Notes under the pieces: generated by a model
What the model was told of the DNA's origin: nothing
Databases searched by the model: none
The model's input: the letters and a program-made list of their open reading frames with translations, nothing else
Part shown: positions 8,520 through 57,118 of the stretch, piece after piece
How the letters are laid out: each line of letters begins with the position of its first letter
Numbering within the stretch: the first letter of the stretch is position 1
Translations under genes and position numbers: made by a program
Assembly: GCA_008632985.1 (NCBI GenBank)
Contig: QPGO01000039.1
Span: 124,001 to 188,000 of the forward strand
Origin: Psammoneis japonica
Taxonomy: Eukaryota
Length of the DNA stretch: 64,000 nucleotides
Direction: 5' to 3'

Positions 8520-11500
8520 ATCGTCTGTCCTTGGTGGAGGGCAGACAGACGGATGGGGAAGAGCAAATTTCATGTGGGAGGAACATTGTGCAAACACCTG
8601 GCCACTTGCCATCATTCACAATGGGGTCATCTCAGCAGCAGAGTCACAAACACCCCTTGGAAGAAGTGGGTTCATCCTTGCTCCAGCACCACAGGCACCC
8701 CTGGCTCTTCTGCTTTTCTCCAAAAGCCTGCCTGCCTGCCTCAGCCTCTCACTGGCATGGCTGGCTGGGGAGGGGGCAGTCATGAGAGATGAGCCAGAGA
8801 ATCATTGTCCAGTGGAGTCATCACTTTGAAGGTTGTTTTCTAGAAAATTGATGCCACAGGTGATGCATCAGCAGGGTTGGTGGTGGTTTCCAGTGAGACA
8901 AGCTCATTTGCGGCAGGCAGGCTTGGTTGGCTTGCAAGTGAAGCGCAACGAGTGAAAATGGGGCTTGCATCAAAGAAGAATTTGGCACCTCACATGTGAG
9001 GTCATGACCTGTCAGAGCAGTGACAGCTGAGTTGATGATGGATGCAAGCCTCTCTACAGGCCAGAAACAGCAGCAAAAACATGTGCGCCAGCAAGAAAGA
9101 GTGAGAGAGTGTGTGCCTGGTGTCAGCTGGCATGACAGTCTGTGCACACCACTGGGGGGGGGGGCAAAAGGCATGGGTCACCCCTGCCAATTAAAGTGCT
9201 GCTTCTCTTGCATCAAGCTCATTTGGAGGACAAAAATGGGGAAAGCATGCAGACAAAAGGAAGAGGGGGGGCGTCATGCGCCACAAGAGAAGAAGCCCCC
9301 GTTTGCTCTGCTGCTTGCTTGGTGCTGCCGATGTCATGGTGGGACCCCCTCTCACTGCATCTGCCCAAGACACCCATCATGCAACAACAATGGTGTGCCA
9401 GGTGCCAAAGAGCAAGCAAAAATCTGGTTGCCCATCAACCCAGAGAGCCAGCACATCAGACTCAACAGAAGACAAATGATGTTCTGTGCTTTTGGACACT
9501 CCTCTTGCAGAGAGAGGGGCACCCTTCTCCCCTCCCTCTCTCTCCTCTCGTCTCAGGTGGTTGAGACACAGCACAAAACCATCCAAGAAAGAAGTTCCCA
9601 AAGAAGTCACAGTTGGTGACAGGGTGTGTGAGCAGTGAAACACTGAGCCACCGGAGGAGATTTGTGTGTGTGTGGTGATTTTGACTGCGATTGAAGTTGA
9701 TTTGGAAGTTTTCACNATCTGATGAGAGTTGCCGCCAGATCGGCAAGCGCGTGAGATTGAATGGCAGACTGACAAACATGACCTGCAATTTTCTTGAATG
9801 GACTGTGGAGATTTGAAAAAATGGTCACACTTGGCCTGTCCTTCCATGTGCTCACAAAACTTGCGCAGGATTCTACGCACACAATGTTGTGTGGGGCGAT
9901 GCTGAAATGGCAGTTGTGCCAATCAGGCCTCATTCAAATTTGTGTGAGGCCAATGCAAATGGCACTTTCATGATGATGATGCAGCGGCGGTGTCTTCAGT
10001 GCATTCCTGCAGTCACACCACAGTGTGTGCTTCTAGATGTGACAATGTGTTGGAAAGTTTGAAAGAGATCTGTCTCATTGGTGGCGTCTCTGATGGTGTT
10101 GTTTTCAACATCAATTTATGGACTGGCTGTTGTGGACTGGACTGTTGTGGAAGGGCTGAATGTTGCAGCACTGGTGGCAGCAGGAGCCTTTTGCTGCTTT
10201 TGCACTGGCAGTGGTTGGAGCCTGTGCACTGCTGTCCTTTTTATCTGGCGGCAGTTGGTGCCCCTGCATGATGCTGGTGCTGGTGGTGGTTGGAGCTTTT
10301 TTGCTGCTGGCCAGTGGCTGCAGTGGGAGCCCATGTGTCACTGCCACTGCAGCACTGGTGGTGGTGGGATCCTGTGTGCTGCTAGCACTGGAGGTGGTTG
10401 GAGCCTTTTGCTGCTAGAACTGGCAGCAGCAGTGGCCTCTGTGCTGCTGCTGTGGCACAGGTGGCTGTGTGAGCCTGTGTCCTGCATGTTTGCCAGCATT
10501 GGCGGCGGTTGGAGCCTGTGTGCTGGTGACCATCGAGGCATTTGGAGCCTTGTTGTGTGGTGTCGGTGGGCACCCTGCATGCTGTTGGGACTGGTGATGG
10601 TTGGAGCTTTTTTGCTGACAGCCTGTGGTTGCAGTGGGAGCCTGTGTGTCACTGCCAGCACTGGTGGCAGTGTGATCCTGTGTGCTGCTGGCACTGGAGG
10701 TGGTTGGAGCCTTTTGCTGCTGGCGCTGGTGGCAGCAGCAGCCTGTTTGCTGCTGCTGCAGCGCTGGTGGTGGTGTGAGCCTGCATCCTGTGTGTTTGCC
10801 AGCATTGGCGGTGGTTGGAGCCTGTGCACAACCATCTTTTTTATCTGGTGGCGGTTGGCACCCCTGCATGATGCTGGCACTGGTGTGGCAGTGGGAGGCT
10901 GCATCCTGCACAACTGCTGGCACTGGCGGCGGTTGGAGCCTGTGTGCTGCTGTCCCTTTCATCTGGTGGCAGTGGGTGCCCCTGCATGATGCTGGCACTG
11001 GTGGCAGTGGGAGGCTGCACCCTGCACAGCTGCCAGCGCTTGCAGCGGTTGGAGCCCGTGCCAGTGGTTGGCGCTGGAGGCGGTTGGATCCTTTTGCTGC
11101 TGGGGCCCCAGCCTGCGCTGTTGGCACTGGAGGTGATTGGATCCTTTTTGTCTGGAGGCTGTGTGATGCTGACCATTGAGGTGGTTGGATCCTTTTCATC
11201 TGGTGGCGACACCTGCCCCTGCATGGCTGCAGGCACTCGTGGTTGTTGTTGTGGAGGTGGGAGCTCGCGCACAACCGCTGGCGCACTGGCGGCGGTGGGA
11301 GCCTGTGCACTGCTGACTGGTGTGTTGAGGCGGTTGGATCCTTTTTATCTGGCAGCTCTGGTGGTGGTGGGAGCCTTTTTGTTTGCTTGCACAGATGGCC
11401 ATGTGGTGGTGGGGTTGGAGCCTGGTCGCTGCTGGCACTCGTGGTGTGGGAGGCAGCCTTTGTGCCCCCCTCCTGCTGATGGGGTGGGAGCCTTTTTGCT

Positions 11501-11620
11501 GCTGACACGGGCAACAGTTGGAGTGTTTGTGCAATGCCAGGTCTGGTGGTGGTGGGAGCCTTTTTACTGCTAGCACTGGCAGTGGTTGGAGCCTGTGCAA
11601 CACACCAACCGTCGGCGGCG
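8520..11620. mobile_element. Degenerate repeat domain (TpA/CpG-depleted), element identity unresolved
   Basis: Dense nearly Tyr-less spurious ORFs, TG/CA-rich composition, one N near 9716; contains the tandem array listed next. Confidence 0.55.
10150..11600 (+). repeat. Degenerate minisatellite of ~30-40-bp units (core gcactggYggYggttggagcc) with a ~305-310-bp higher-order period
   Basis: The ggttggagcc/gggagcc/ggatcc core recurs more than 20 times. Matching blocks at about 10290/10601, 10397/10704 and 10510/10815. Confidence 0.8.
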
Positions 11621-11989: not shown

Positions 11990-13184
11990 ATGGCGTTGTC
12001 TCAGCGGCAGATTAACCACAAGCATCCCTTGCAAGCAGAGTCAACATCATCATCCTCGTCTGCTCATTTGGCCACCACTGCCGCCGAGGAAAAAGCCTCC
12101 TTGCTTGCTGCACGACTGCCGCGAACACTGCCGAAGAAATCGCATCTACGTACGAAATGCCTGTTGGTGACAATTGTAATATTAGTTTCCATGCAGTTGC
12201 TTGGATTATTGATTTTATCCGACACCTTTCCTGCGCTGCCATCATTCTGGAGAAGTCCCTGGGAGGCAATCTTGATTCCTCTCTTGCCTCTGGCACGAAC
12301 CGGAGGGCATTTTCGATTTTGCGTATATCAACGAAAATGGTTGTATTGGCCGCTTACCAGGGCCCGACGATTGTGGTTGATGCTGGGACGAAACAATCGT
12401 GATGATGCAGTCTTTTATATCGACATTGAAACGGGAACTGCTAAAAGCTACTCGAACAACGACCTGCCACCCATTCCGAAAAATCATTTGCGATACGTGG
12501 TCATTTCGGATACACACCTTTTGCACGACGATGTCCATCTTGTGCCGGGCCATGTGCTGATTCACTGTGGTGATGTCTTGGTGGAAAATCATGGCAACAG
12601 CAATAATATAGAGAGCAGCAAACGATTTCTCTCGAACTTTGATGATTGGTTGGGAAAACAACAATTGTTGTTTGGATTTGAATCTGTATCGGTAACGGGT
12701 GGCAATCATGACGGTATCTTGCAAGTCTTGGACGACAACCACCATGAGGAAATATTTCGACATGGATCCTTTGTGCACAACAAACAGATGCTATTGGGGT
12801 AGTAGCAATGCAACACAACGGCGCATTTATCTTAGTGCAAGCTCCCGAGGTAGTGATGGTGCTGCGAACCGTGCCTTTCAATACAGCACCAACCAAGCCG
12901 CTCATGACATTTGGTCCAAGGTTCCATTTGATGTAGATATCTTGGTGACACACGGGCCACCATTTGGAATTCTGGATGGGCCAAATGACGGACCCAATGC
13001 CGGATGCCCCATCCTATTGCAGTATGTGACGCAACAAATCAAGCCACGGGTCCATGTGTTTGGTCATTGGCATGATGCTGGCGCCGTCGTGGAGAAACGC
13101 AACAACATTGTATTTGTTAATGCTGCAAGCGTGGATTACGATTATGCCATGACACGCAAGCCAATAGTCTTTGATCTTGGTTAG
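11990..13184 (+). CDS. Metallophosphoesterase (MPPED/239FB-like) with N-terminal TM segment; +1 frameshift near 12796-12800
   Basis: Motifs ISDTH, IHCGD and GGNHD in the first frame; DILVTHGPP and HVFGHWH in the second frame. The break lies at the G run ttggggt. Confidence 0.8.
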
Positions 13185-13699
13185 CTCCGATTCGCTGATG
13201 GGAATCACATATATGTGGCTGTTGATTTTTACTGGAAAAAGAAATGGGCGCAAGTAACATAAAATCGCATACTGTACTGTAGAAGGGGGCGGCTCTAATC
13301 ATGGGTCGAGAGGACGAGAGGAACCCCCCGAAATAAAGCCCTCTCTAACTAGAAAGCAGACATGAGATGCAATTGATCCAATTGTGAGAGGCAACGACGA
13401 ACTGATCGGAAGAAGAAATCATCGTGCGACTGCGCTGCGCGAGAGGAAAAATTTGGACGCAAGTAGAAAACTTGGAGTGTTCTCTACACAAATAGCCAAA
13501 GTAACCTTGCCAACTTCAACCCTCTCCCGGACAATGGAAACGTGTACATTTCACACAACAAAGTATCCAGACTGCTCATTTACACCCCCCTCAACTTGTT
13601 TGTGGAGAGAGAAACTGCATGTTTTCTTACATTCATCGTTTGGCACAGCTCCACAAAACTGGAACGTCACGATTTTGGCACCTTTCTGAAACGGATGAA

Positions 13700-15600
13700 T
13701 GACATCCCCAATCTGTCATCTCTTGCCCCCAACGCTCCTGCACATCACAATGCTGCACTCACTTGGCACCTTGAAAAACCCATCAGCACCTTTTAAAAAA
13801 ACGCCCGAAAAGTCAGCACCCATGCAAAAAAGTGGGTGTCAGGCAGCCAGTGCAGTCATGCGCATGAGGGGTGGCTCTTGCTTCATCTTCTGTGCAAACT
13901 AAATTTGAGCAGATTCTGGCACCACAGCTGATGCATTGGTGGTGTTTGGTCATCTTGTTGGCTTGATGTCAACAGCGCAACCAGTGCAGGGTTGACTGCT
14001 GGGGGTTCATCACATGCGCAGGAAGGTTTGCAAGCCTTGCCAATGAGGTCACACAGGTTGTCACATGCTTCATCATGTTGTGAGATGACTGGGCCACTCT
14101 TCTCACACTGAAGGGCATGGTTGATGGAGAATTTACATCCACACAGCCATCACAGTGCTTGGGTGGAGTGCCGCCATTCCAAAGGCTGAGCGCATTGTGG
14201 AACTCTGGGCATGAGAGTTCCAAGCCATTTAGCATCAATGGGCACACTGAAGGCCATGCTCCAGTCTTGGTGCTGCATCAATGGATCTAGCCTGGACATT
14301 GGGTGGAGTCCAGAGAATTGACTTGAGGGTCTCCTCATGTGCTTTCACTTTCCGACTGGCTGCTTCTCATTTCACTTCATGCACACTGTCCTTGTGAACT
14401 GCAGAAGAGAATTCTGAGTGGCCACGCAGTGAATCTGTCACGTGCAAGCATGCAAAAGCACTTGCTTGAAAGTTTTGACCTGCAGACTCTGTTGGATGAG
14501 GGATGGATGGTTCCAAAAATTTCACTGGGATGGCAGACAGGGAGGCAGTCTGGGGGTCATTGTCTGCCAAGCTCTCTCTGAGCAATGCAGGAAGGAATTT
14601 GTGCTGTGTTGATTGCCCCACTTCCACAAAGGAGTCACCACAGTCATCAACCACATGCTGGACATGCTGCCACTGGTGTTGTGGGGACTTTTGCAGACCA
14701 GCACAGGCAGTCCATGGGTGGTGAATTGTGATCTTGTCTGGGCCTTGGACAAAACCAAGTGGGGCCCAGCATGACTGAGCTTTTTCCTCTGACCATCGGC
14801 CAAGTGCATCCATCTCACCAAAGAAGCCTCTGAGGTGGCAGCTGCCACATTTGACAGTGAAGCCAAGATCTCCAAGGCATGCTCTGGAGCTTTCCAGGCA
14901 ACGTTCTGGGAATGCCAGAGTGTTCTTCTTGGAGTTGTTGGCAGGGTGGCATCCATGCTTGGGGCCTTCAGCTTGGAGAGCCAAGCAAAAGTTCCAAAGG
15001 ACATCAAATTTTCCTCTGCTGCAGTGGAGTCATCAGCATGCCAAGAGGTGAAAGCATCCTTGAAATGCTTGTTCAGCTCTTGGACCAGTGGAAGAATTCC
15101 CAGTCCACAAGTCACTGCACCAAGTGGGTCACCCTGTGCAATGCCTTCATTGCTGAACAGCACATGATCAGGGTGGGTGCTCCAACAATGCTTGCAGCAA
15201 GTGAAAATGGACCTTGTGCCAGATGGCAAAAGGTGCATGACATTGCATGGCATCAAAGTCCCCTTTCTCCGAGGGTGGGTGCTCCAATGCTTGCAGCAAG
15301 TGAAAATGGACCTCATGCCAGATGGCAAAAGGTGCATGACATTGCATCGCATCAAAGTCCACATTCTCCGCATTGAACCCCGTTGGGAAGGCATCAACAC
15401 AAAAAAAAGAAGTTGGAAGTTGCCCTCAAATTTGTGTTGCTCCCAGAGCTCCCAGAGCAGATTTGTGGCATGAATTGCACCTTTGATGCCCACCTCTGGT
15501 CCTGCACATGGCTGATCTACACCACAAGCTTCCTTGGCTTCTCGCTCCAGCAACCAGGAGAACAGCTCAGGCCATGGCTTGCAGGTTTTGGCGCGGCTCT
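13700..15600 (-). mobile_element. Degenerate non-LTR retrotransposon (CRE-like RT plus C-terminal Zn-knuckle region)
   Basis: ACGVDQPCAG, EGIAQGDPL, WHADD (=WYADD), GPKHGCHP (=GPxYGYxP), HLRGFFG, LSCPEFHNAL...CDGC. Multiple frameshifts and an internal duplication at about 15170-15357. Confidence 0.85.
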
Positions 15601-16243
15601 TGTTCGGCATCATACGCGAATGTATGTTTTTATGTACAAGCAACGGAAAATAGATTTTTCAATGAATTAATCATGACCTTTTTTAATATTTAAATCAGCT
15701 TTCTTGACATCCGTTAGAATTTTGATTCCTTAACAAAATTGTTTGATTAGTCATTTTTGATTGTTGTGGCCTACAGTACAGTACAGTCACTTTCATTCTA
15801 CATACATAGCAGAACCCCAAATGATAACCGTTATTATTTACACAACATTTTCCGTTCAGATTCCAAAAATGTCAATGAACACCTCCAGAAATTGATTCGT
15901 GGACGGTAAGTATGAACGTACCACATAGTACGTACCGTACTGTAGGTCCTAGGGCCCTACGTCGTAAAAGACGCACAGTGAATAACGCTCATGCATCATG
16001 CCACCGGTAGCATGCATCACTCATCGCTCATCGCCCGCGAAATGAATGAAAGGTGGGGGTATTATTTTTCGAAATGTGACGGGTCCTGCTGCGGTGCAAT
16101 ACATTATTTGTTTGAAGATATCCTTTCATTCGATTTCTTTTAGCTGCTTTTTGCAATTGTCGGTAGAAACAGACTCATCCGGTTAACTAACGTCCAGCTG
16201 GACGCTGTTGCGTAGCTTACATACTTTTGGTCTTTGCTAAAAC

Positions 16244-17378
16244 ATGTTGGATTGGACTGCACTCGTCAATCACACCAGTCATTACTGTCGTCGTAGACGA
16301 CGCGGTCTGGTATTGTTTGGAGCTGTAGTGCTGCTTGTGGATTTGGCACTGCTCCTTCGAAACGCTTACAACAAGGAGGAGCCGCACCAGGAGAAGCCAC
16401 TGATGATTCGTCAAAGTACACGGATTCGTCAAATTTCCGTTTTGGGAGAACGGAACTCGGGGACACGATGGATATACGAGTCAGTTGCTTTCTTAAAGCA
16501 TGTCATGCCGTTGATCATTATGATGTGTGCTCACTGTGTTTTTATTGTTTTATCGGTGTATATAGCCACTTAATGGACTGCTTCAATAACTCGATTTACG
16601 TAAGAACAGTGATTTGTTTTCTTGTGTTCTTGTCGTTTTTGCATTAAGCACAAGTCATAATCTGACTCTTTTTCTTAAACATTTTAAACAGTTGCGAAGG
16701 AGCTTGAGTCGTCACAAGCACTGGTTTCAACACGAGAATACCCGTTTCTACCACCACGGTGTACTTGCCCTTGAACTCTTTCGGCATCCCTATTACTGGC
16801 TCAAGGCCATGCAGGATCGTCCCCATCACGCCCCCAACCACTTGTTTCTCAATGACTCTGAATTTTTAACCCGACCGTGGACCATGGATCGTATTGGAAG
16901 TGACTTGGTAGTATCGGAACAAGTCAGAAACGGCACGATAAAGTGTCAACAGGATTTTAACTACAGCGACATTATTTCGTGCGAAAAATATCCAATCCCA
17001 GAAGAGCAGTACAATCATTTCCTTTTTTTTTCAGAAGCTCAACCGTTTTACGAAATGAAACCTGGGAGGGGCGGTGAACCCTTTGCTAACATTATGGAGA
17101 TGCGCGGTGCCAAGATTCGGAATTTCCTTGGAATTAAGGACTATGAGGGCGTTGTGGACGTTTGGACCTTGCAATACGAATACTTGTTGAAGAATGGGAC
17201 CAAGCACCTCTTGGATCGAATATCCGAGGCAACAGGCGTGGAGTACCAGTGTGATCCATTCCCGCCACAAGAGAAACGCGACAAACGAGAAATGACAAAG
17301 AGCTTTGTGCGATTGGTCAATGAACATCTCGACTGGAGTGCGGAAGCACTTATTGGGTATTCTCCAGTGCAAGTTTAG
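16244..17378 (+). CDS. Membrane-anchored P-loop sulfotransferase-like protein; exons 16244-16479, 16566-16599, 16692-17378
   Basis: TM anchor, ISVLGERNSGTRW. Two GT-AG introns splice in frame to ...WIYDHLMDCFNNSIYLRRSLSRHKHWFQ; also FRHPYYW and QYE motifs. Confidence 0.75.
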
Positions 17379-17872
17379 TAGAATGACTTGGGCTTTGGGA
17401 AAGCGACTACAGTATTCAAGTTCGTACTCTATTGCCAGCTAAAATAGATACGTATGCGAACGAGTTAATGTAATTTTATTTTAAGGAAAAGTTAGAATTT
17501 ATGGTGCGGAAGAGTCAGGAGAAAGAGTGGTGAGCGAGTTCTATTTTGGTTATGGCGGGAAAACCTGTCTGACCTCTTCGACTAAAAACCATTTGATGAC
17601 GTCACCCTCATTTTTTCAGAAGAAGCAAAATAAATGTCGGATATCTCCCTCCAACACCACGTAACACTCAGTACACATTTGACGTACAAAATTTGGAATT
17701 CGGCATGCAGTACAGAAGATACCGTACAGTACATATGTAATACGACGAACAACGACAGAGACAATACAACAAGCTGCTGCAACAACATTGGAACATTGGC
17801 CGTTTCATTGCTCTATTACTCTTTACATTGGGTTTCTTCTCTTTGAATTATCACAACGTTTTATATATCACC

Positions 17873-18902
17873 ATGTGGAATGATTGGATAAATTCGCCAG
17901 TTCTCAAGATTTCAAACAATGCCAAGCCCCTCGCCGTACAAGTATCGGATTTCATGTGGTGGAATTTTCCATACCATCGTTTGTCATTGCAAGAAGGCTT
18001 GATACCCTTTCTGCTACGACCCGAAGGAGTCATGTCGATGGTTTTGTTTTATATCCTTTCCAAGCCACTCTTGATACAATTGGTCAAGAATTACTCCGAC
18101 GACACGTCCAAGTCGTCATCGTCGTCACGAGTTGCATTTACACGCTTTGTCGCTCTACACAATTTGGCCTTGTCCGTGTTTAGTCTCGTGGTGGCGGTGG
18201 AATGTTGGAATATTTTGGGTCGACAGGCATGGAAAACAAGCATTCAAGAAACGTATTGTGACCAGAGATTTCTGTATGAAACGTCCTCCTTTGGTGCGTG
18301 GGCGGTTGTGTTTTACGTTTCCAAGTTTTATGAATTCGTCGATACGTGGATTCTGATTTTGAAGGTACGAATCATCGTTTTGGTGGTGGAAACAACATAC
18401 TTTTGAGGAAGTGAAATGGAGTGGTTGTAATATCTATATGCTGTTGATTCTCAATCTTGAAAACGCCATCCTTATCTTTGCTGTTTTCTCTATATAGGGC
18501 AAACAACCATCCTTTCTTCAACTTTATCATCACGTCGGTATTGCTCTGTCCATGTGGGGTGGACTTGTCAGCTACGCCTCATGGATTACCATTGTCGTTT
18601 GTCTCAATAGTGTCATTCACACAATCATGTACCTTTACTTTTTTGTCAAAACCCTACATCCCCATTTGCTGCTACACTCCTTGGCACGGTGCTTGACCTT
18701 TATGCAAATTGGACAATTTTTATTGGGAATTGCCATTCAATGGTCTTTATCAAAAACGTGTGACTCCAACAATCCTGCTTCGAATTTCATGTGTATTCTC
18801 ATTATTGCCTATGCCATTGGTTTGATTGGACTCTTTGTGGCATTTGCATTCCAAAAGTATTTTAAGAGGCAACACGAAACGAAAAAGTTAAAGGAAAAGT
18901 AA
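17873..18902 (+). CDS. Fatty-acid elongase (ELO/GNS1/SUR4 family); exons 17873-18364, 18498-18902
   Basis: FYVSKFYEFVDTWILILK, spliced GKQPSFLQLYHH, NSVIHTIMYLYF, TFMQIGQF and a C-terminal Lys-rich ER-retention tail. Confidence 0.9.
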
Positions 18903-19016: not shown

Positions 19017-20300
19017 TCACCACTCATCATCGACTTTACCAAACAAGTCGGGCATGCCGCACATCAAGTCTTCTTCTTCTTCTTCTTCTTCTTGCGTGCA
19101 TTTCTTCTTTTCATTGACATCATCAATCGGTTCGGCTTCTTTTTTCTCTTCCTCGTGCCGATGTCGGACATACCAACTCAATTGTTCCGATTCCACGTCA
19201 TGATTGGTTTCCTCATGCACACGTTCCAGGTAATTCAAGGCGTATCGAAATTCGTCAATGGAATTGCAATGCACCATTAAATCCCGAATTTTGGTATTGG
19301 ACTGCATATCCGCATGTAGATATCGGTGTAAATGACCACGAATGCACTTCATACCCGACCCTTGTCCACCCACGTCGGGTGGATGTTTTATGGCCAGTTC
19401 CAAGTATTCTCGAGCGAGCGCCAATCTCGAAATGATGCGCTTATTATTGGAGGACACGGGCAAAAACATGGGTGGGTACTCCAACAATGCTTCACTCGCC
19501 ATGATTCCATCGGCCTGGGTAACCTCCAAACACGCTTGTGCCTCTTGAAAATTCGAAACGGATCCATTGGCAAAAATGGGAATACGATTACCCAGCAAAT
19601 CCACTGCTTGTCGAATAGCATCCCAATCGGCCGCTCCCGTAAGGTGTTGTTTTTGCAATCGATTCCGTCCATGAATGGTAATGAGAGAAACACCGGCGTT
19701 TACTAATTTTTCATATAATTTCAAAGAATCTTGCACACCACTTGGCAACAAGCGCACCTTGACGCAAAGAGGTTTCGTCAAGACTTGAACGAGTTCCTTT
19801 ACCAAATTCAACAACAAGTCTTCTTGTTCCAACAAGAACGCTCCATACATGCCACGCCTAGCAATTCCTTGAGGACAACCACAATTGATATCAATTGCAT
19901 CGACATGCGGTTCAATTTCCAGCACCGCTTGTTTGACATAGTCCAAATGGGAACCACAAAATTGCGCCACGAGCGGACGATCGTGTGCCAGTGTGCCTTT
20001 GGTGGAATCAAAAAATTTGGACCTGTATTTGGGGGAGGTACAATACAATTTGGCATGAATCATGGGTGTATAGGCTAAATTGCATCCGTATCGTCGACAT
20101 TGCAAACGAAAGGGCAAATCGGATGCGTCCACCATGGGTGCCACCACAAGAGCCTTGTTTTGGAATGTCTTTTGGAGTTGTAATTTGGGCTCTGTGAGTA
20201 AATCATTCTCTGTATCCATTTTTGACTCGTATTTTTGTAATAATTTAATCACCCAGTCACGATCGACTACGTGCTGGTGCTGCTGTTGCTCCGTCGTCAT
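19017..20300 (-). CDS. DUS1: tRNA-dihydrouridine synthase (DUS1-like)
   Basis: VVAPMVDASDLPFR, YTPM, DRPLVAQFCG, DINCGCPQ, TIHGR, IFANG and DGIMASE. Start taken at the ATG of MTTEQQ. Confidence 0.9.
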   Translation of the reverse strand: MTTEQQQHQHVVDRDWVIKLLQKYESKMDTENDLLTEPKLQLQKTFQNKALVVAPMVDASDLPFRLQCRRYGCNLAYTPMIHAKLYCTSPKYRSKFFDSTKGTLAHDRPLVAQFCGSHLDYVKQAVLEIEPHVDAIDINCGCPQGIARRGMYGAFLLEQEDLLLNLVKELVQVLTKPLCVKVRLLPSGVQDSLKLYEKLVNAGVSLITIHGRNRLQKQHLTGAADWDAIRQAVDLLGNRIPIFANGSVSNFQEAQACLEVTQADGIMASEALLEYPPMFLPVSSNNKRIISRLALAREYLELAIKHPPDVGGQGSGMKCIRGHLHRYLHADMQSNTKIRDLMVHCNSIDEFRYALNYLERVHEETNHDVESEQLSWYVRHRHEEEKKEAEPIDDVNEKKKCTQEEEEEEEDLMCGMPDLFGKVDDEW

Positions 20301-20885
20301 GGTGCTGTCGTCTTTTTTTTTTTTTTGAGACACATGCAATAAAAGTTGGTCCCACAGTATCGTGCACGTTGTGCGTTTCTTGAAAAAACGGGTGGCGGAT
20401 GGCTGCTCCAAACGGAGGCCGGTCAGACAAGTAATCCCTCGTTGCAATCTATCTGCAATCAATCCCAATCAACGCACAAATAACACAGACAAATGCCACT
20501 ATTGGTGTGGAAGAAAAGCTCAATGTGGCATTGAAGAGTCGTCATTTTTAGCCCCATCTTTTCTATTACCGGTATTAGTCTCTACTCTAGCACCGCGAAG
20601 TGTTGAGCGCGGATCTTGAAAAGTCATTTGTGCTTCCGAAGGGCTGGTGTCATCGCGCGCGCGTGCGCGAGCGCGTTCAGACAGGTCGCGCGAATGAGGA
20701 ACGAACAGGAGTGTCAACGGAACGAACTCTGACTGACGCTACGTAAGACGTCGTATCTTTTCTACATGATTGTTGTTCCTCACATTTTGGATGCGTGACA
20801 GCTGTGAGTTGTCAAATCACTCACCTCATACTGTGATGGCTGATTGTTTCTTTCTTTTTCTCACAATAAAAAGAAAGCAAAAACA

Positions 20886-30599: not shown

Positions 30600-33500
30600 T
30601 TTCCAGGAAAATATCTTCATGACTTGTTTATGTTCATTTACAGCTCAACGGATGCTTGTTGAATGAAACGTATGAAGATCTTAATACTCTAATTTTTAAA
30701 ATTTTCTTAGACACGTAACCGACAAGTTGCGGGTCGGCGCGGGTGTTGGTCTTCGACACATCATGCATGCAGCCCCGTCTGACCAACAAAGCTCCATGGC
30801 TGAAACTGGATGTGATTGAATCAAACTCATTCTACCAGCTCCATTTCACCACAATTTTGAAGGTTCCAGCCAGCCCCTTCTCTGTGCTGTACTGCCGTGG
30901 CTGGCCCTGGCACCCAGAGCCAACTCTCTTGCACCCCCATGTGTGCCAGCAGCTGGCGCTTCTTTTTTCCGAAACGCCAGTGCTGAGTGTGGTGGTTGCA
31001 CAACATTTGAGACCCCGCCAATCAAAAATTCATTTTCACAAACAAAAACTCTTGGATTTCATTGAGCAGGAGGCTGCTGCACACCCCGCTTTCATCGTCG
31101 CTCATCTGACGCACTCATGAAGCAAAGAGTGCCCGAGAGCAATGTTCAAGCTCAACATGCTGCAACTTGCATTTGTTCAATTTTCCATGCCATCCAGCTT
31201 TGAGTGAGATTTTTTAGGGCTGGATTATGGCAGAACATTTTTTGATCATGTGTGCCACCACACAAAGAGCGCACCACGTGCTTGTGTTTCCTTGTGCTCT
31301 GCGCGTGATTTTTTTGCAAAAACTTGTCTCGCACACACCTTGTTTTGCGTGTGAAGCCTGAGAGAACAACAAGTGGATCCTGTGTGTTGTCACAAATCTG
31401 CAAATCAACAACCGGCCATGGTGGTGAAAGACTTTGCCCCATTGGCCGATGACAGTGGCTCAGCGCATGGTGAAACCTGCTGTCCTTCTGGTCAGTCAAG
31501 ATGGATTTTGATTTGGGCGCAGCTTGAGTTTCATGATCGCGAGTGTGCTGTCACGAATCTGCCACATCCAGAACACTGAGCTGCTGGCATGTTGTTTTGT
31601 GCACGCACATCACAAACTTGCTTTTCTGCAGCGTTGTTGGTGCAATCGTGCATGTCAGAGTTTTGCACCCAGAATCATCACACGTTGCCACAAATGACAC
31701 TCTCTTCAAACAAGGCATGTGCAGAAAGAGGTTCATTGGTTTTTAATGCGTTCGCTGACAATGCATCTGTCTTTTCCAATTTCTGCATCAACATCCAGAA
31801 ACGCTGCAGATTGTGCTTGTTCCTGCAGCTCTCAGAATCACACGCATGAAAAGTTCTTTGCCATGCATGATGACACTCTTCAAAAAAGGTGTGCACAAAA
31901 AGAGCTTCATTTGTTTTTTGTGTGTTCACTTGCGTTGCATCCATCTTCTCCAATTTCTGCTTCCAGACCCAGAAAAACTGCAGAGGTGGAGAGTGGGGAG
32001 GCAACCCATTGGAGGTTGCCTGAGTTGTCAGGCTCATTTTAAAGGCTTCCCAAGTCTCTCCTCTGTTTCTGGTCCATGCTCCAAACATTTCATCGGCTGA
32101 ACCATCTGCAGCACAGGAGGTGTGAGGCAAACTTGGTCATTGCCACACAATGTCTTACACTGCACACCGGCATCCATGTTGCTCCAGAATCAGCAGTGCT
32201 GGATGCACTGATGCACCGGCAAGTGTGTGTTGCGGTTCATGTCAGCTCATCCACCTTGTGCTCTCACAATGTGCTCCACACTTTTTGGCAATGAATGAGG
32301 TTGATGTCAGAGCAATGGCACTTCTGCTGCAAACTCGCCCACTCCAGAATCAGCGGCGTTGGATGCACTGGCAAGTCCATGTTGCCGTTCCTGTGGGCTG
32401 TGTTGGATCATCTGTGTTGCACTCTCACAACGTGCTCCACTCTTTTTGGCAACAAATGAGGTGGGACAGAGCAACGGCAATTCAAACAATGGAACAGCAG
32501 CTCCTGCCACAAACTTGCCTGCTCCAGAATCAGCAGCACCGGATTCACTGGTGAGCCCATGTTGCGGTTCCTGTTGGCAGTGTTGGCTCATCATCTGCGT
32601 GGTGCTCTCACAACATGTTCTGCACTTTTTTGGCAATGAACAAAGTGGCTGCCAGCAGTGGCACTTCAAGAAAGTGAGCTGCAACTGCTGCTGCAAACTC
32701 CAGCATGTTGTCTCTGTCAGCGTCGCTCAATTTAAATGTAAACAACAAAATGGAATGTTCATGGTGCAGTGCAAATGATTTTAATTTACAAGTTTTGTGG
32801 GGACAGAGGGCGGGCACTCTCACAGGGAAAACATGTCCCTGTTTCACAGTGAAACAGGGGGTCCCACAGCACAAAAATGTTTGTCTGTCACAGTTGACAT
32901 GTGATTGCCAGCTGCACCAACTGTCAAGGTTTGAAACAACAGAATTTTGTGCCTAGATTAAAAACATTGCTGTGAGAAAGGGTGCTCTGTGTCACTGTGA
33001 TTCGTGCTCAGATGAGGCTGCAACAGTCACAAATGATGGGTGGCTCCAGCCATTGCAGAGAGGCAGTGGCAGGGTTGCATCTTTTGTGAAACAAGATCTT
33101 GCAATGGCCATGGCATTCTCCAACATTTGTGAAGGGGCAGCTGCGGATGTGGGTGCAAGACAAACTGCAAATTTTGTCCTTTGAAGAGACTCTGCTTTTC
33201 TTCAACTAATGCAGAGAGGGGGGGGGGTTGTCAATCTGACAGTGCTTGCAAGTGGCTCCTGCAATGAGGGACTTGTGTTAGATGCCAATTGTGAGAAAAA
33301 ATGATTGAGATTTTTTCCTTCTGATGCGATGCTGTGTGTGATGAGGTTTTGCTGGCTGATCGATCTTACATCATCGCCGATTTTGGGCACTCGGCACACG
33401 AAACAGCACTGATCATGGACAGTCCCCAGTCCCCAGTGGCCATGGATGGCGTAAAGTGGAAAGTGACTTTTTTGTGACCTTTGCAAGTGAAGGCTTCCAC

Positions 33501-40439: not shown

Positions 40440-41240
40440 GACAGCTAAGGTGTGAAATCATCCAGCTGACTGCTGAGTCCAGGAGCAGCGCACGTGGTCA
40501 AATGGCAAGCCACCAGAGAGACAGGAGTGCTTCAAAGCTGCCCAGACAGCAAAGAGAGAGCAATGTCAAACAAAAAATCCAAAGCTCAAGAAAAATGTGT
40601 GCAACAAATCTGCAGCCAGTGGTTGCAAGCTGGCCAAAAAAGAAAGAAGCCAGCTGTGTTTGCTTTCTCTGGCTGGCAACAAGTGCAAAAGTTTGTGCTC
40701 ATGGAAAGCTGTAGGTGGCAACAAAGTCATTGCTGAAAAATTCCAAGCATGTGCGGGTGTGACAGCAACCCATGCCAGCAGCCACTGTCATTTGCTTGTC
40801 ACAACAGCTGAGGCTCTTTTCTTTCTTTTCTTGTGACAATGCCAATGGTGTGCTCAACTCAGAGCTCTTTTGTGACAGACCAAGCAAGTGCATCATTTGT
40901 CTTGTTTGTAGATGGGGAGCAGCTCTGCCATGTGAGGATTTTTTGCCCCGTCTGTCATTTGTCTGTGCTGGGCTGCATTGGGGTTTTCTTGTTCAGGCAA
41001 AAAGCTGAGTCTCAGATGATCTGGAAGGGCAGCATGCAGCAAGATTTCCAGAGGTGCAAAAGTCAAAGTGCATGGCCAGTTGTCATGGGTGACTTTTGTG
41101 GTGCACCAAAAGCAGCCATGGTGCTGCTCCCCCCAAGCACACTTGGTTATTTCAAGAAGAGACCAGCTCCTGATGGTGCTTTGTGCACAAAACCAAGGCT
41201 TTGGCTACAGTTGCAGTCATGTGTCAAGAACCAACAACTT
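40440..41240. mobile_element. Short degenerate repeat domain between FKBP and the kinase
   Basis: TpA/CpG-poor, TG/CA-rich, only spurious ORFs. Confidence 0.45.
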
Positions 41241-43204: not shown

Positions 43205-44070
43205 AGGGCCAAGCCCGTGTGGTGAACAGACAGAAAGTTGTTCTGTAGTTGTGTGATGTAAGCCGTAATAAGAATTAGTTTCAATGAAGAAAAACACATG
43301 TACGGAGCTATAAACGAGAGAGAGAGAGCGCTTATTCATTCGATCACTTAGTGGAACAAGCAGGCAAAACAGAAGAAAATTGTACGAAACACTAGCTAGC
43401 TACGGCATTGTAGGTGTGACTAGTGGGTACGATGCACCACAGGTCTACTGATGAAATCATCTGACAAATGCCAAACAGGTGTAGCATCTCGGACCAGAAG
43501 CCGCCTCTATTCTTACCTTCCTCTTTCGTCAACAATCCAACCGTCGATTCCCGTGTATCTCATTAATCAACATTTACAAGTTGGTTTCTCTACTGTTCAT
43601 TCACGGGCGGCGGCGGCGGCGCGCTTTAGAGGCATCAGTACTCCACACTTATTGGCCAATTATACCCGAGATTGTCGTGACCCATCACCTTGAGATTGAA
43701 CCCATACCCAAATTCCATTTCAACTTCGGACACGTGCAAACAATGGAGGACTGCAGACCCTCCTTGATTGGCAAAGATGACGTTCAACACTTGTGCCACC
43801 TGCGGGACATTGTTCGACCTGCACACCGTGTTTCATCACACTTTTGTGATTTCTGCTCGCGGTCTATTTGGTCAGTGGATTTCGTTGGTGCTTTGGGTTT
43901 GTCATGTCCAAAGTCCTTGGCCATCATGAGTGAGAAGATGACACTCTGGTGCACGCAACAAAAGAGGAATGTCAGCAAGTGGTTCCAATGACAAATCAAA
44001 ACATCACATTGTTTTTCTTGCATTTGAACAACAGTCATGATTTGCCTGCAGAAAACAATCAGCAGCACCA

Positions 44071-44267
44071 TGATCATGTGAACATGGCAGGACAAAAAGC
44101 AGCAAAATTGGCCAGCTCATTGGTGCACTGAATTGGAAAGGAGATGGACTCTGGAAGGCATTTCTCACTTGATCATGTGAACATGGCAGGACAAAAAGCA
44201 GCAAAATTGGCCAGCCCATTGGTGCACTGAATTGGAAAGGAGATGGACTCTGGAAGGCATTTCTCAC
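44071..44267 (+). repeat. Near-perfect 99-bp tandem duplication
   Basis: tgatcatgtgaacatggcagg...ggcatttctcac at 44071 and 44170, with one internal substitution seen (ctcat/cccat). Confidence 0.85.
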
Positions 44268-47200
44268 AAGGAATGGAGCAGACAGAGAGCTCTGCTAAAG
44301 CCATGCCATGCAAGGCTGGACCCTGATGTGACACTTGCTCCACACAGAACATCTGTCATGCAGCACACTGGACAAGGAGGTGGGCACTTGTTGACCACAT
44401 CAGAGCACAAGTTAAAAGTGCACAAATCACCCAGGTGCCAAAGCATGCTGTGGCTGTCCCTTTTGGTTAGACTCACTCAACCCCTTTTTTGTTTCAAAAT
44501 GCCAACAAAAGAGCAAGGGCCAAAGCTCAAGCTGTGAGCAGCTGTGGTCCCAGCAAGCAAGGTGAGCTCTGATCTCAAAAAGCCAGGTGGTGTTTGACTT
44601 GAGCAATGCTGTGCATGACAGTCACCAGACAAGAAGGAGCTTGAGATGTTGTGGCATCTCAATGCCAAAATGGGGATTCTCTTCTTTGGCAAGAAGTTGG
44701 CTGGAAAAAAGCGGCTTTTGTTGCTTGCCAATTTTGATCCACTGTGCACTCATTGAGCAATGAGGTTTTTGAGAGAAGCTGCAATTTTGTCATTGCCCAA
44801 GTGTGTCACAAAGGAGGCAGAACAGGGGGGCAGCTTGCAAGCAAGGAGAGCATGCTGCAGGGCTCCTCTTCTCACCTCATTGGGTGGGTGAGTTCTTTTG
44901 TGAGCTGCCTGTGCTTTTTGCTCAATCCATCTGCGGTGCAGAAAAAATGAGTTGTTGCAAACTCACTGTTAGCGCCTTGGGAAATCTTGCTCTCTTGCAG
45001 CTTTGGCTGGCAGCTGGGAAAGTGTCAATGAGCAGTGCAGTGGCTGCTGCATTTGGGAGTGCCAGAGGTCTTGTTGTCAATGGCTTGGAAACAGCAAAAC
45101 CTGCTTTACAGCCCAATCAGCCATGACTTGAACTTTTTTGGCAGAGGACATGCAGACAAAAATGGCTGTTTGGAATGCATGATGATGTGCAGCACAATGG
45201 CCAGCTGTTTTCTAGATTGTCAACATGGTGATCATTGATGAGAAACAAACCATCAAATGACAGTTGTTGGCAAGAGCCAGTTGCACTCCTCACAAAAAGC
45301 AAGCAACTGAAATCACTGCAGTTGCTGGCAGCTTGAGAAGAAGCCAGTTGAACTTTCCAACAACACACAATGATGTTCTCAGCACTTCTCCTGAGTTGCC
45401 AAGCAGTCAATCTGAGAAATGAAACAAACTGCAGGCACATTTGTTTGGTGTCCAATCCCTTGAAAATGGGCGGGAAGTGCAAATGACTGGCAGTCCAAAG
45501 GTTGGCCATGCTGGTCAACCACCACTGACACCCCTTGACAAAATCATCTCCAGTGCCACAGAAGCAGCACCACTTCAATGACTTCCTCCATCTCCCCCAA
45601 GAAATGGGACTCAACATGCATGGTGATGTGCAGAGCAGCTTTCCCATGTCATCTGGGCATGAGCCAACCCATGCCGCTGGCAATGCCCTGTTGTTAGATT
45701 TGACCAAAGCAGCTCTCACTCACATCAGATGAAAATGGCACAAAAAATTGGTGATTTGACCAAGAGGAGAGCTCAGGGTCAGACACAGCAAGGTCAGCTT
45801 GCTTGTTGCTGATGACCACCATCTGTGGATGTTGGTTGACAATGCACACAACTTGCACTCAAAGCACAATCTTTTGGAAGCTGGGTCCAAAAACACACAC
45901 ATCAACAGTTGTTGCCACCCACAATGTGGCGTGCAACTTCTCACCACTTTGCTGCTGAGTGCCCATGCATTCTTCATCTCAACCTGTCAACAGAAAAAGC
46001 AGAACCTCTGGCACTGCACAATGGTTGTGCAAGCAAATTTTTTTCACTGGGGGTGGGTGGGCTTCAAGGGTGCACACACTTCTCCAGTTGGTGGGCAGCC
46101 ACATTGGGGTTTTGAGTGGAGGCATCTCCCCACATTGCGCCAAATCTGTGGCAACACAACAAATGACCATCAGAATCTCAGGCCCTCAATGCTTTGAGCG
46201 ACCACCAATTTTGAGTTAATTTGAGCCAATGCTTTCCTTGTGGAGCTCTCACAAATGACAACCAGCCACTGAGTGGTGGTTGGAAATTGTTGATGGCCCA
46301 TCAAGAAGGCCACAGTGTTGGTGGTGCTCAGGGAAAAAGTTTTGATGACCCAGCATTGGCAAACCTTGTTTGCACAGGCATTTTGTCCCTCAGTGGAATG
46401 TTCACTTGTTTGGTCACTCAGTGGCAACATTTCAACCATTTCTTTGGTCACCTGGCACACAGACCAGCAACTGTCAAGGAGCCAGTTGTCCTGCAATGTC
46501 TGCACTGTGGCTCCAACAGTCATTTGAATCTGGAAATTTTCTAAAGGAGGCTGCATTTCAGCAACTCTTCAATGAAGCTTTTGCAGTGCAATTGCCACCT
46601 GAGTTTGCTGTTTGTCCAGAGTTGAGAGCCTTTGCTGAAGACACAAATGGGAAGACAGTTGCGGGGGAACTGGATTTTCAAACAGCTGGCAACTTACGTT
46701 GGGCTGTTGAGCTTTTGAGAAATGGGAACAAGACCAATGAACATGCACATTGCTTTGACCTGATCAATGGGAAGCATCATTTAGCAGGGCACAAAGCTCA
46801 CACCTCATTGTGGACTTCAGGAGAACTCGTGGGTGCAAACAAGTGAAATCCACACACAAACATTGCACTCTGCACTTTTCCACATCCTTTGAGTCAGTGG
46901 AAATCAAAATGAGAGAGTGCCCACTGTTGAAGAAGCTCATGGATTGATCAAAGCATCATTTGGCCAGCTTGCATTGGCAGAGGGGTAAAAATGTGTGATG
47001 GCTCACAGAAAAACTCAACCTCCCATTGGCCAGCAGCAACAGGAGCTGCTTTTGTAAAGGAGACTGTGAAACAGAAGATCAGCTTGTGACTGACTTTGTT
47101 GTAATTTGTGCTGGCTTTGGGTGAAGAGCAAGTGTTCAGCTGTTGATTTTAATGTGTGGTTGTTTTTGTGTTGATTGACATTTTGCATGGGATGTTGCTT

Positions 47201-48825
47201 TTTGACAAAGTGGCTTTGTGGCATGTGCCAGAGAGGGACCTTGGAAGCCACAGCTGCATTAAACCAGCATGATTATCCAGCAACTGACTTCACAAATGGT
47301 GCAATGTCAAACTCTTTTTCAAATTGCTCCAATGGTGAAACCAATGGCAAAACAGCTTCTATCTTGCAGCATGGTGGTGGGCCAGAGTGGACAATGTTTT
47401 GTGCAAGTGCAAGAAGCTGCAGAGCAACGAGAATGCAAACACAAAAAAAAATGATGTGGAGCTCCAGCAAATGCTTGATCTGCACCTGATTTGGTGATTT
47501 TGCTGCCAAAGGATTTGGCAAAATCCACTTTGCAACCAGTGGTTGCAAGCCAGCCAAAGAGGCAAGATGCTGTGACTGCATTCTTGAGCCGACAGTCAAT
47601 GCAAGAGTCATTGCACTCACCAAAAGCCAAACAGAACTGCCGCTCAAACTCTGAGCATGGCAACCCTGTCTCTGTTGAGTGCTTGCTGAGGCAATTGTGG
47701 CACTCTTTGCCTTTGTTCCAAGAGAAGGTGGTCCTCTTTTTGCACTCGTCTGTCTGTCGGATGGATCATTTGTGCTTGTTGGGAGTGAAGTTGGTGTGAA
47801 AAGTGACTCCGTCACAAACTTTGTTGGAACCGCTTGATGGACAATGATGACAGACGTTTTGTCGTCATCGTTGCGACAGATCCGGGCAGTGCGTACATCG
47901 GAATCAATGGTTGATGTTGTTGCTGTTGTTTTGGCACCATGTCATGAGCATTGTGAGCATCTTGTTGAGATCTCATTGCGATGGGAACAGGAAAATGGCA
48001 GCACATGTGGTGCTTCAATCACGAAATGCATCCAACCCAAAGGACCCGGGGGTGGCAAAGTGAAGTCGTTCCAGTTTGTTCATTTTCACAGTTTTGTTTT
48101 TCTTTGTTGTTGGTTGTGTTGTTTGTGTCCATGGGATGCAATGAATGTGTTCAATGTCCCAGGAGGTCTCGCACTGTTGGCACACGGGGCTGCGGATTTC
48201 ATTGCCTTGAGCTCAAAATCCCCGCAGAAGCGCAAGCAGGTTCAGTGCTAGAGTGAGCCGGTGTTTTTCCTTTGTCCCCTTTCGAAATCCCAGCATGGAA
48301 AAGTCAAAAGGTCAAGAAAAGACAGAGGAATGACTGACAAAAGAGGATCCCATGGAGAGCAAGAAACAGAGGAGCAAAAGGGTTTCCAGGAGTCTCCAAT
48401 CAATGGTGCCAGAGACAAAGGGGGTGTCCCCTCAACGTTGCTGAATGTTGCATCGAACACAAAGGAGACCCTGAACAAAAAAGACAAAAGAGCAATGAGG
48501 TTCCTCAGGAGACATGCATGAGAAGTGCCCATTCTTCTTCCCTGCTCATTGTTCTGGGACACTTCACAAAGTTTCTGCATCCAGGAACTTGCGGCACTCA
48601 AGGGTGGTGCTGTGGAGTTCATCAGTGGCAGCTTTGAAACAAGTCTCAGATCAATGATGTTGGAGGTCAATGACAACAATGTTGTGCATTTGTTTTGCCA
48701 TGATGATGTTGGAGGTCAATGACAACAATGTCATGCAATTGCTTTAGAAAATTTGCCAATGGCAAAATGACATCATGGTTGATCGGCAGCTTGTTGCTCA
48801 CGCAAGTTTTGCATTGCCAGACAAT

Positions 48826-49149
48826 TTAGCATGTGCTGCTGCATGCACTCTCTAGCTGTTTGCTCAAGTCATCAGACCAAACATCATCGGACCATTCATC
48901 ATCAGTCCATGCATCATCTGTCCTGGCATCATCTCTCCCAGCATTGTCTGTCCAAGCATTGTCTGTCCCAGCATTGTCTGTCCCAGCATCGTCTGTCCCA
49001 GCATCATCTGTCCAAGCATCATCTGTCCTGGCATCATCATAACATGACATGAGATCCAAGTCAGAGGTTGCAGCATCATCAGAGAACTCAGCATTTGCAG
49101 AAGCAAACAATGACATGACGAACAGCATCAACAAACAAAATGTTTTCAT
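48826..49149 (-). pseudogene. Signal-peptide ORF with acidic (T/S)DD(A)x pentapeptide repeats (15-bp tandem repeat)
   Basis: MKTFCLLMLFVMSLFASANA followed by DDARTDDAWTDDAGTDDAGTDNAG...; embedded in the hypermutated domain. Confidence 0.55.
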
Positions 49150-51220: not shown

Positions 51221-51808
51221 CTCGCATCCTTGAGCTTCCACAAAGTGGCGCATCCAACAATGGCATGAAGTCATCAGCTCCAACAACCTCGGCTTTGGCA
51301 GAGCTGCAAGTGTTGAGCTTCTGCTTGGTGGACCCCGTTGCAGGGAATCCTCGTCCTGGGGACAATCCTCCTCCGGAGTGTCCTTGCATGTTTGGATGGA
51401 CCGCACATGCTGAGTCGATCCACCATTTAAGGACACCACTTCCGTTGGCACTCAAAATCAGGGGCGACGTGCGTGCATCTCTGAGACACTTCACAAGGCC
51501 AGCAAGTTTGTCCCAGTCATCCTTGTCTGGTTCTCACACACTCTCGTCGTGAGAAATGTGATTGCTGTGCATGTGTCAGGTCGGGCTCATTTGGTGGCAC
51601 ATGATGTCTTGGCTGCCAAGTTGTGAAACTGTGCAGCCTTGTCTGCTGATGGCTTTTTGCAGTCTTCGTCAACTGCAAGCAAGTCTTTCGGTGCTGCGTT
51701 CGACTTGGCACCCTTTTCCTTTGGAGCAGCCTTGTCGAATGCTGATGGGATCTCATCGATGCACCCTGTCATTGCAATCTTGACTTGACCATGGACGGTG
51801 TGGTCTAA

Positions 51809-56827: not shown

Positions 56828-57082
56828 TCTCGCGATTGGATGACCGGCAAATTGTCGACAAGAAGAAATCGTGGCAAGCCAAGAAAATGAAAAATTGGCT
56901 CGTCAAGCCAGAACTAAAAGACAGCACAAACAAGAACAAGAAAGTCAAGAAGCAGAGCAAGAAAGCAGAAGCAGAGACAAGGGAATGAAGAATGGCAGAC
57001 GCAGATGATGCAGCCAAGTGGAAGGAGGAGCTCTGTCATGGTGCACTGGATGGGAGAGAAGTGAATGGTGCAGCTGGATCTA

Positions 57083-57085
<3 letters not shown>

Positions 57086-57116
<31 letters not shown>
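57086..57116 (+). repeat. (GA)n microsatellite
   Basis: Run of GA dinucleotides. Confidence 0.9.

Positions 57117-57118
<2 letters not shown>

Follow-up and report, generated by a model that had tools for sequence, protein, structure and literature searches.

Hypermutation of invading DNA directed at the dinucleotide TpA has been the subject of one prior report, which deals with one chlorarachniophyte only, Bigelowiella natans (preprint of Mettrop et al. 2026, bioRxiv 10.64898/2026.01.13.699255). In this work, we analyzed a degraded non-long-terminal-repeat (non-LTR) retrotransposon copy in a 64,000-nucleotide stretch of DNA from Psammoneis japonica (assembly GCA_008632985.1, contig QPGO01000039.1, positions 124,001 to 188,000 of the forward strand). 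The whole stretch is hereafter termed the window, and all coordinates refer to it. We consider it likely that the retrotransposon copy, which is dead, was rewritten by two dinucleotide-specific and strand-symmetric transition processes, one acting on TpA and the other on CpG.

According to the available text of the preprint, 231 of the 302 nuclear point mutations in B. natans mutation-accumulation lines fell in two integrated viral regions; almost all of them were A-to-G or T-to-C, and all such AT-to-GC changes were on TpA (bioRxiv 10.64898/2026.01.13.699255). The same text describes clusters in the B. natans genome that are poor in TpA and rich in CpA and TpG. The TpA-poor coding sequences are enriched for RT and DDE domains, most of the affected sequences could not be annotated, and an ADAT2-like deaminase is proposed as the agent; enzymes of the ADAT2 type are said there, by citation, to deaminate both A and C in DNA. 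CpG, flanking context and diatoms are not mentioned in that text, as far as it was available. In ascomycetes, the process of repeat-induced point mutation (RIP) converts CpA to TpA and thereby creates TpA and AT-rich DNA (RIPCAL, PMC2621366, in the part available). No report of TpA-specific hypermutation or of TpA-free transposons in diatoms was found in the literature searched.

Conserved tyrosine and arginine positions of the reverse transcriptase copy

The minus strand from 15553 to 13985 encodes a truncated and frameshifted non-LTR reverse transcriptase (RT), found in four frame pieces by tblastn with seven database relatives. The alignment of 88 relatives, each 600 aa or longer, served to build a family hidden Markov model (HMM) of 1083 states. 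The copy and the compositional island around it comprise the following features.

13732..15612, no strand: island poor in TpA and CpG and rich in TG and CA that contains the dead RT copy (dinucleotide observed/expected (O/E) ratios)
15020..15553, minus strand: RT piece A, fingers and palm up to the YxDD box (HMM states 435–576, E 1e-7 and 2e-15; tblastn with the seven relatives)
15029..15043, minus strand: catalytic box reading WHADD, with the His codon CAT at 15038–15040
15170..15370, no strand: internal tandem duplication, two units of about 100 bp with 92% identity, interrupting the RT between motifs
14292..15020, minus strand: RT piece B in a different frame (HMM states 576–822, E 6e-35; tblastn), containing GPKHGC, CHLRG, ACAGL and QHVQHV
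14143..14277, minus strand: RT-family piece C in a third frame (tblastn, HMM)
13985..14143, minus strand: RT-family piece D, Cys-rich C-terminal region (HMM states 866–915; tblastn)

The 88 relatives define eight alignment columns with at least 50% Tyr and twelve with at least 50% Arg. None of the eight Tyr columns is kept in the window copy, which has Cys in four of them, His in three and Asn in one (codons TGC, TGT, CAT, TGC, CAC, TGT, CAT and AAT); each of the seven Cys and His codons is a single transition away from TAY (Y, pyrimidine). The Arg columns are likewise all lost (three Cys, two Trp, two His, one Gln, two Lys, one Met, one Ala), and 8 of the 12 now carry Cys, Trp, His or Gln codons of the TGN or CAN type (N, any base), each a single transition from CGN. 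The other conserved columns are kept in 95 of 167 cases (Fisher p = 2e-7 for Tyr and Arg against the rest). At the catalytic position, where the window copy has His, the column reads Tyr in 62, Phe in 19, Met in 1 and Leu in 1 of 84 relatives.

The result holds in larger and independent comparison sets. Among 151 relatives, the cells of the Tyr columns are Tyr in 903, Phe in 134, His in 48 and Cys in 7 of 1202 cases (Fisher p = 3e-9), and those of the Arg columns are Arg in 2011 of 2549 (Fisher p = 2e-10). For 79 metagenome loci compared at seven Tyr states of the profile, the counts are 400 Tyr, 72 Phe, 21 His and 7 Cys of 510 cells, and Arg states are filled by Arg in 656 of 681; all seven Tyr states are covered in 63 loci, and 61 of these keep at least five Tyr or Phe residues. 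The window copy reads Cys, Cys, His, Cys, Cys, His and Asn at these states. Other substitutions carry the same imprint: five of six Leu-to-Pro changes are CCA, the product expected of CTA, one Ile-to-Thr change is ACA (expected of ATA), and of the two Val-to-Ala changes one is GCA (expected of GTA) and the other GCT.

The first-pass annotation of this locus had described a 373-aa open reading frame (ORF) at 14522–15643 that contains no Tyr and in which RT motifs show His or Cys in place of Tyr and Arg, including the catalytic motif. The observation is confirmed, and its interpretation was essentially right. The lack of Tyr in this ORF is real, compared with a median of 2.17% Tyr in relatives; the stop-to-stop frame 14522–15658 (minus strand, 378 aa) has a single Tyr at its residue 3, upstream of the 373-aa span. 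The motifs lie where they had been placed: besides WHADD, these are GPKHGC at 14949–14966, the Cys of CGLG (TGT, 15107–15109), the Cys and His of CHLRG (TGC, 14838–14840; CAC, 14835–14837), the Cys of ACAGL (TGT, 14703–14705) and the two His of QHVQHV (CAT, 14664–14666 and 14655–14657). The ORF as a whole is an RT only for its first ~210 aa; its remainder is out of the RT frame by both tblastn and HMM, and all motifs downstream of about 15020 sit in another frame, ORF 14367–15029. The remainder stays open because TAA and TAG are impossible without TpA, and six overlapping ORFs of more than 120 aa are found on the 1.9-kb island. The description of the conversion as acting at the codon level has to be replaced by action on dinucleotides, over the whole island and ten more islands.

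Intact-length relatives do not share the His and Cys residues, as the composition of the YxDD column shows, and Tyr was not replaced evenly by its neighbors in the genetic code: seven of eight replacements are His or Cys and one is Asn, with no Phe, Ser or Asp. The closest database relative, P0002, also reads WHADD; its own low Tyr content (1.28%) makes it probable that this copy, too, is not intact but converted in part.

The copy covers HMM states 435–915 (best E 6e-35). It is 5'-truncated compared with the ~1000-aa relatives, with about 430 N-terminal and 170 C-terminal profile positions missing, and the HMM found no match to the last ~170 states in the copy. There are at least three frameshifts, including one between pieces A and B near 15017–15020. 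Pfam RVT_1 matches the copy at E 0.25 only, although it does match the relatives. The nearest solved structures are R2 retrotransposon proteins, with weak similarity (E ~6e-4) over the RT core only. The family, labelled CRE-like in the first-pass annotation, appears to be an RT with a distant R2-type affinity. The consensus of the relatives contains a Cys/His-rich block, to which piece D aligns, followed by conserved Arg, Asp and Glu positions; these may correspond to a C-terminal zinc knuckle and a restriction-like endonuclease, and no match to an endonuclease profile was obtained. At E up to 0.001 there are 13,841 representatives, which makes this a very large family. No second copy of the element is present in the window. 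A search of the public run X1 gave 254 further contigs that are at least 80% alike to the window stretch and differ from it by 185 transitions versus 62 transversions, so the element is multi-copy in its genome. Judged by its sequence, the region 13985–15553 is one of many copies of a non-LTR retrotransposon, and this copy is dead.

Dinucleotide composition and flanking context of the islands

The island 13732–15612 has an O/E ratio of 0.05 for TpA, 0.17 for CpG and 1.80 for TG and CA, and no other dinucleotide is clearly shifted, 14 others lying within ~0.25 of the background. At the density of the background, 76.7 TpA would be expected in 13732–15619, where 7 are present (Poisson p = 2e-24). 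Six TA lie inside the island, the last of them at 15518, and nine follow in 15613–15691, which makes a sharp edge at the 5' end of the element. The summed frequency of TA, CG, TG and CA is 240 per kb in the island versus 246 in the background, so that the gain in TG and CA makes up for the loss of TA and CG. This mass balance of pyrimidine–purine steps bears out the initial proposal that TpA loss and CpG decay converge on the same products. The GC content is barely altered (0.51 versus ~0.46).

The window contains eleven such islands, about 20.8 kb of the 64 kb in total, which are sharply bounded among intact host ORFs. In pooled islands compared with the background, the ratio is 0.06 versus 0.55 for TA, 0.31 versus 0.97 for CG and 1.75 versus 1.20 for TG/CA. 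The other twelve dinucleotides stay within ~0.2 of the background, and TA and CG are the sole depleted ones of 16. The ten further islands, with TpA O/E of 0.03–0.07 and CpG O/E of 0.06–0.55, are located as follows.

408–1688, 8525–11538, 30867–32632, 40588–41146 and 43814–46952: first five further islands
47411–49193, 49761–50727, 51287–51800, 54144–55131 and 55432–60325: remaining five islands

Surviving TpA dinucleotides follow a rule set by their flanks. The 73 TpA left in the islands comprise 40 in the YTAR context (R, purine), 31 in mixed contexts and 2 in RTAY, versus 231, 727 and 427 in the background (chi-square p = 8e-17), which corresponds to survival relative to the background density of 0.29, 0.072 and 0.008, respectively. 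Four of the six TA left in the island 13732–15612 are YTAR, two are mixed and none is RTAY. Products are skewed as well, with an excess of RCAR/YTGY of 24.3 per kb versus 14.6 per kb for RTGR/YCAY. If CpG decay is symmetric, this excess means that the changed adenine precedes a pyrimidine, i.e. that the target is T-A-Y.

The same rule is seen in metagenome relatives that are partially depleted of TpA. Two of them, L007 and L011, are 94.5% identical, and 20 of their 95 differences are TA versus TG/CA, on about 45 TA sites. The sites lost differ between the two loci (13 and 7). The T-A-Y direction holds for 15 of the 20 differences and, from rows read by hand, for 11 of the 14 at mixed-context sites. 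TA retained in both loci are YTAR in 12 cases, mixed in 3 and RTAY in none; residual TA of a further locus, L027, are distributed similarly (9, 3 and 0). In 68 relatives with normal TpA, the contexts are RTAY in 28%, YTAR in 20% and mixed in 52%. Partial TpA depletion with normal CpG extends over L011:501–3000, L022:2001–4957 and the whole of L027 and L007, with Tyr-to-His/Cys changes and YTAR-biased survivors. From these sequences, the TpA process appears to occur also in other uncultured eukaryotes that carry a related RT.

We also considered the T-A context as a mirror of the U33–A34 step in tRNA anticodon loops, the substrate of ADAT and TadA. This idea was set aside, as eukaryotic tRNAs with A34 mostly have a purine at position 35, unlike T-A-Y.

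Two repeat-related or edge-related observations were made along the islands. A degenerate tandem array occupies 10160–11600, with ~33-bp subunits and higher-order periods of 103, 118 and 306 bp. At the end of the window, a plus-strand ORF (63722–64000) that runs off the window matches Pfam Serpin (E 3e-9) in a TpA-poor stretch (3 TA in 63501–64000); this ORF may stem from the converted copy of a gene, or from a host gene that lies at an island edge.

Proposed processes and alternative explanations

The first process would be a TpA-directed A-to-G (equivalently, T-to-C) hypermutation, turning TpA into TpG or CpA near saturation and leaving about 5% of the expected TpA. It would prefer an adenine before a pyrimidine (T-A-Y) and largely spare Y-T-A-R. 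The second would be an ordinary decay of CpG to TpG or CpA, slower and variable between islands, and presumably caused by cytosine methylation of silenced repeats; transposons are methylated in diatoms. Acting together, the two would change TAY Tyr codons to TGY or CAY and CGN Arg codons to TGN or CAN, destroy the YxDD box, and remove TAA and TAG stops, the removal of which would leave spurious long ORFs in all frames. The scheme covers the observed conversions, their dinucleotide specificity, strand symmetry and flank bias, and the separability of the two losses. By analogy with the changes observed live in B. natans, we infer that the first process is an enzymatic, defence-type hypermutation, and an adenine deaminase acting on DNA is perhaps its agent.

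Editing before integration is an unlikely alternative to this scheme. In this view, ADAR- or APOBEC-like hypermutation would have struck the RNA or first-strand cDNA in the course of retrotransposition, and the copy would have been inserted in the converted form. An element of this RT family replicates through RNA, the TpA-free state ends sharply at the element 5' end (last TA at 15518, dense TA from 15613), and the 5' U preference matches that of ADAR as cited in the available text of the B. natans preprint (bioRxiv 10.64898/2026.01.13.699255). The products are nevertheless strand-symmetric, with four Tyr codons converted to Cys and three to His and with 185 TG versus 180 CA in 13903–15505, whereas editing of a single strand would give one product. 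The preferred 3' neighbor is a pyrimidine, unlike the 3' G preference of ADAR. Ten other islands share the signature, and they include tandem arrays without RT that show CA<>TG differences among their copies. The repeat copies compared within islands, mostly those of the 10.2–11.6 kb tandem array, have 177 isolated double mismatches, of which 80 are CA<>TG and 8 belong to the next class (the high-scoring segment pairs overlap, and the counts are redundant). Such a difference between copies is the mark of a self-complementary dinucleotide that was resolved differently in each copy; it does not distinguish an ancestral TA from CG. These differences, like the different TA sites lost in L007 and L011, speak for action after duplication. 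Finally, the changes in B. natans arise in integrated DNA, according to the available preprint text.

A single mechanism for both losses, either one enzyme or one base-modification pathway acting on CpG and TpA (a C/A deaminase or oxidation of 5-methylpyrimidines), is improbable to about the same degree. Both dinucleotides are depleted in the same islands with the same products, and the available text of bioRxiv 10.64898/2026.01.13.699255 cites reports of ADAT2-type enzymes that deaminate A as well as C in DNA. Across the eleven islands, however, TpA loss is uniform while the O/E of CpG varies ninefold. Loci L007, L011 and L022 have lost TpA with normal CpG. In L011, the seven Tyr states read one Tyr, one Phe, two His and three Cys, with Arg kept at 10 of 10 states and a CpG O/E of 0.84; the TA-poor stretch in both L011 and L022 is local, with 3–10 TA per 500 bp versus 18–33 in the flanks and normal CG counts. 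The dependence on flanks also differs, as RCGY is the best-surviving class of CpG (0.56) and RTAY the worst-surviving class of TpA (0.008). Uniform TpA loss against variable CpG loss, the L011-type relatives and the differing flanks indicate two overlapping processes. In our reading, the TpA loss stands apart and is much the faster of the two, and the CpG loss is an ordinary slower decay that is presumably driven by methylation.

It is very improbable that the signature is a sequencing or assembly artefact in which modified bases of silenced DNA were miscalled and TA and CG were read as TG or CA. The islands could be heavily modified chromatin, and X1, the sole run with this stretch, may be the source data of the assembly, its library type being unrecorded. 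On the other side, contigs of X1 reproduce 13318–14042, 14015–14510, 14929–15246 and 15318–16225 with no other letters, and the word depth is 28–35 on the exact island contigs versus 51–59 in the flanks; this pattern fits accurate short reads. Metagenome contigs of unrelated projects show a like loss of Tyr to His or Cys and TpA hypermutability, which is an independent argument against a base-modification artefact. The copy also has frameshifts and a duplication.

Scarcely credible is selection or native composition, in which the family avoids TpA and CpG (e.g. because of nuclease sensing) and was never TA-rich. Cytoplasmic RNAs and viruses commonly have suppressed UpA and CpG (PMC3829696, in the part available), and the relatives are mildly TA-poor. 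The copy, however, has other residues in place of the catalytic Tyr and of seven further conserved Tyr, has lost conserved Arg and has a broken frame, which is impossible under selection on a working element, and its TpA O/E is below that of all 79 relatives (median 0.54, minimum 0.10; CpG median 0.73), whose median argues that the RT family is not TA-free by nature.

Several points weigh against the proposed rewriting by two processes or limit how far it can be carried. We infer that the RT copy was acted on after its insertion; prior editing would account for the sharp 5' edge just as well. As a clock, the internal duplication at 15170–15370 is of no use for timing, with one CA<>TG difference in ~100 bp. 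Ancestral states of the window copy rest on protein alignments of ~35% identity and on composition, not on paralogues, and blastn of the element against the 79 related loci gave no match. In the flank rule, the ancestral composition is approximated by that of host genic DNA, and CpG decay is assumed to be symmetric. The possible origin of the assembly from X1, mentioned above, belongs here too. A search of 113 ORFs (25 + 88) of the other islands found no transposon or viral Pfam domain; a recognizable mobile-element protein is present in one of the eleven islands, and the targeting of repeats is thus seen for one island only. Just outside the island, 13472–13655 has normal TpA (8 TA in ~170 bp) at a summed X1 word depth of 818 versus ~55 in the flanks. 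Conversion therefore does not reach all repeated stretches, and this one seems to have escaped it, perhaps by being short or young.

Going beyond this locus, we tentatively speculate, with the balance tipped slightly against it, that diatoms and marine eukaryotes with the same RT family run a RIP-like defence with a chemistry opposite to that of fungal RIP, in which an enzyme system would recognize duplex DNA that is foreign or silenced and change the adenine of T-A-Y to guanine on both strands, with next to no TpA left in the end. If so, the defence would be shared by a stramenopile and the rhizarian B. natans and would be either ancient in SAR (stramenopiles, alveolates and rhizarians) or acquired there more than once, and its catalyst would be an adenine editor that occurs naturally and works on chromosomal DNA with sequence specificity. 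Any candidate enzyme must account for the flank rule. Partial forms in marine metagenome contigs suggest that the process is probably widespread in ecologically dominant algae. There are also consequences for annotation. As Tyr, CGN Arg and two stop codons of the three disappear from the islands, gene callers predict long false ORFs there; profile searches miss such elements, as RVT_1 does here, and repeat annotation then undercounts transposons.

Host context and comparison with described systems

Between the islands, the window carries long intact host ORFs, including a seven-transmembrane receptor, an AAA ATPase, Dus and a kinase. The best named matches of the Dus ORF (19017–20468) are from diatoms (Ditylum, Cyclotella, Thalassiosira, Nitzschia, Pseudo-nitzschia, Skeletonema and others) at 45–59% identity; one named match is labelled non-diatom, and none is closer than 59%. 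These matches, together with long intron-poor ORFs, make the host genes diatom-like. Two adjacent plus-strand ORFs at 17741–18902 are, by eye, candidate halves of an intron-split fatty-acid elongase (ELO-type) gene. A contig of run X2 skips 16480–16565 and 16600–16691 in an intron-like manner, in the gene downstream of the RT island. X2 is probably an RNA run; it is almost without cover on the island and was not used as evidence. In X1, the island within 12000–17500 is at about half the depth of its flanks, which show a second allele at a depth of ~30. A hemizygous insertion may be the reason, or a strong divergence of haplotypes.

The R2-type elements are the nearest counterparts of the RT itself. 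Its relatives resemble them in having a single ORF of ~1000 aa, an RVT_1 domain and a Cys/His-rich C-terminal region, although the similarity to R2 proteins is as weak and as confined to the RT core as described above.

Known mutational defences and decay processes match the conversion of this copy to different extents. ADAR and APOBEC resemble it as mutational defences that inactivate mobile elements, and the ADAR-like 5' U/T preference is shared. These enzymes act on single strands of RNA or cDNA and leave asymmetric marks, whereas the products here are symmetric, the 3' preference is for a pyrimidine, islands without RT are affected too, and the surviving TA are those followed by a purine, which is not the pattern of ADAR-type hyperediting.

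Methylation-driven CpG decay in vertebrates and plants converts CpG to TpG or CpA on both strands, changes CGN Arg to Cys, Trp, His or Gln, and varies with the age of an island. The window copy shows this loss of CpG with a gain of TpG and CpA (CpG O/E 0.17, 8 of 12 conserved Arg now TGN or CAN). Such decay explains only the CpG half of the signature and cannot remove TpA.

RIP of ascomycete fungi shares with the islands dinucleotide-specific transitions that saturate repeats, ruined ORFs and sharply bounded compositional islands. The direction is opposite: RIP leads to a gain of TpA, whereas here the O/E of TpA is 0.05 and that of CpA 1.8.

The closest likeness is to B. natans, where, according to the available preprint text, TpA likewise becomes TpG or CpA depending on the strand, and TpA depletion with a gain of CpA and TpG occurs in clusters amid normal host DNA. 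The systems differ in several respects. The host here is a diatom-like stramenopile and not a chlorarachniophyte, the one identified target is a retrotransposon and not a viral insertion, and the depletion is deeper (O/E 0.03–0.07, versus a Rho of 0.45 given in that text for a nucleocytoplasmic large DNA virus region of B. natans). CpG decay is superimposed, there is a T-A-Y/YTAR flank bias, and the process is known here from sequence, whereas in B. natans there is a live mutation rate. Compared with that report, the new elements are the diatom-like lineage, the depth of depletion, which nears saturation in a third of the 64 kb, a TpA loss that can be separated from CpG decay, the T-A-Y/YTAR bias and the partial cases in marine metagenomes.

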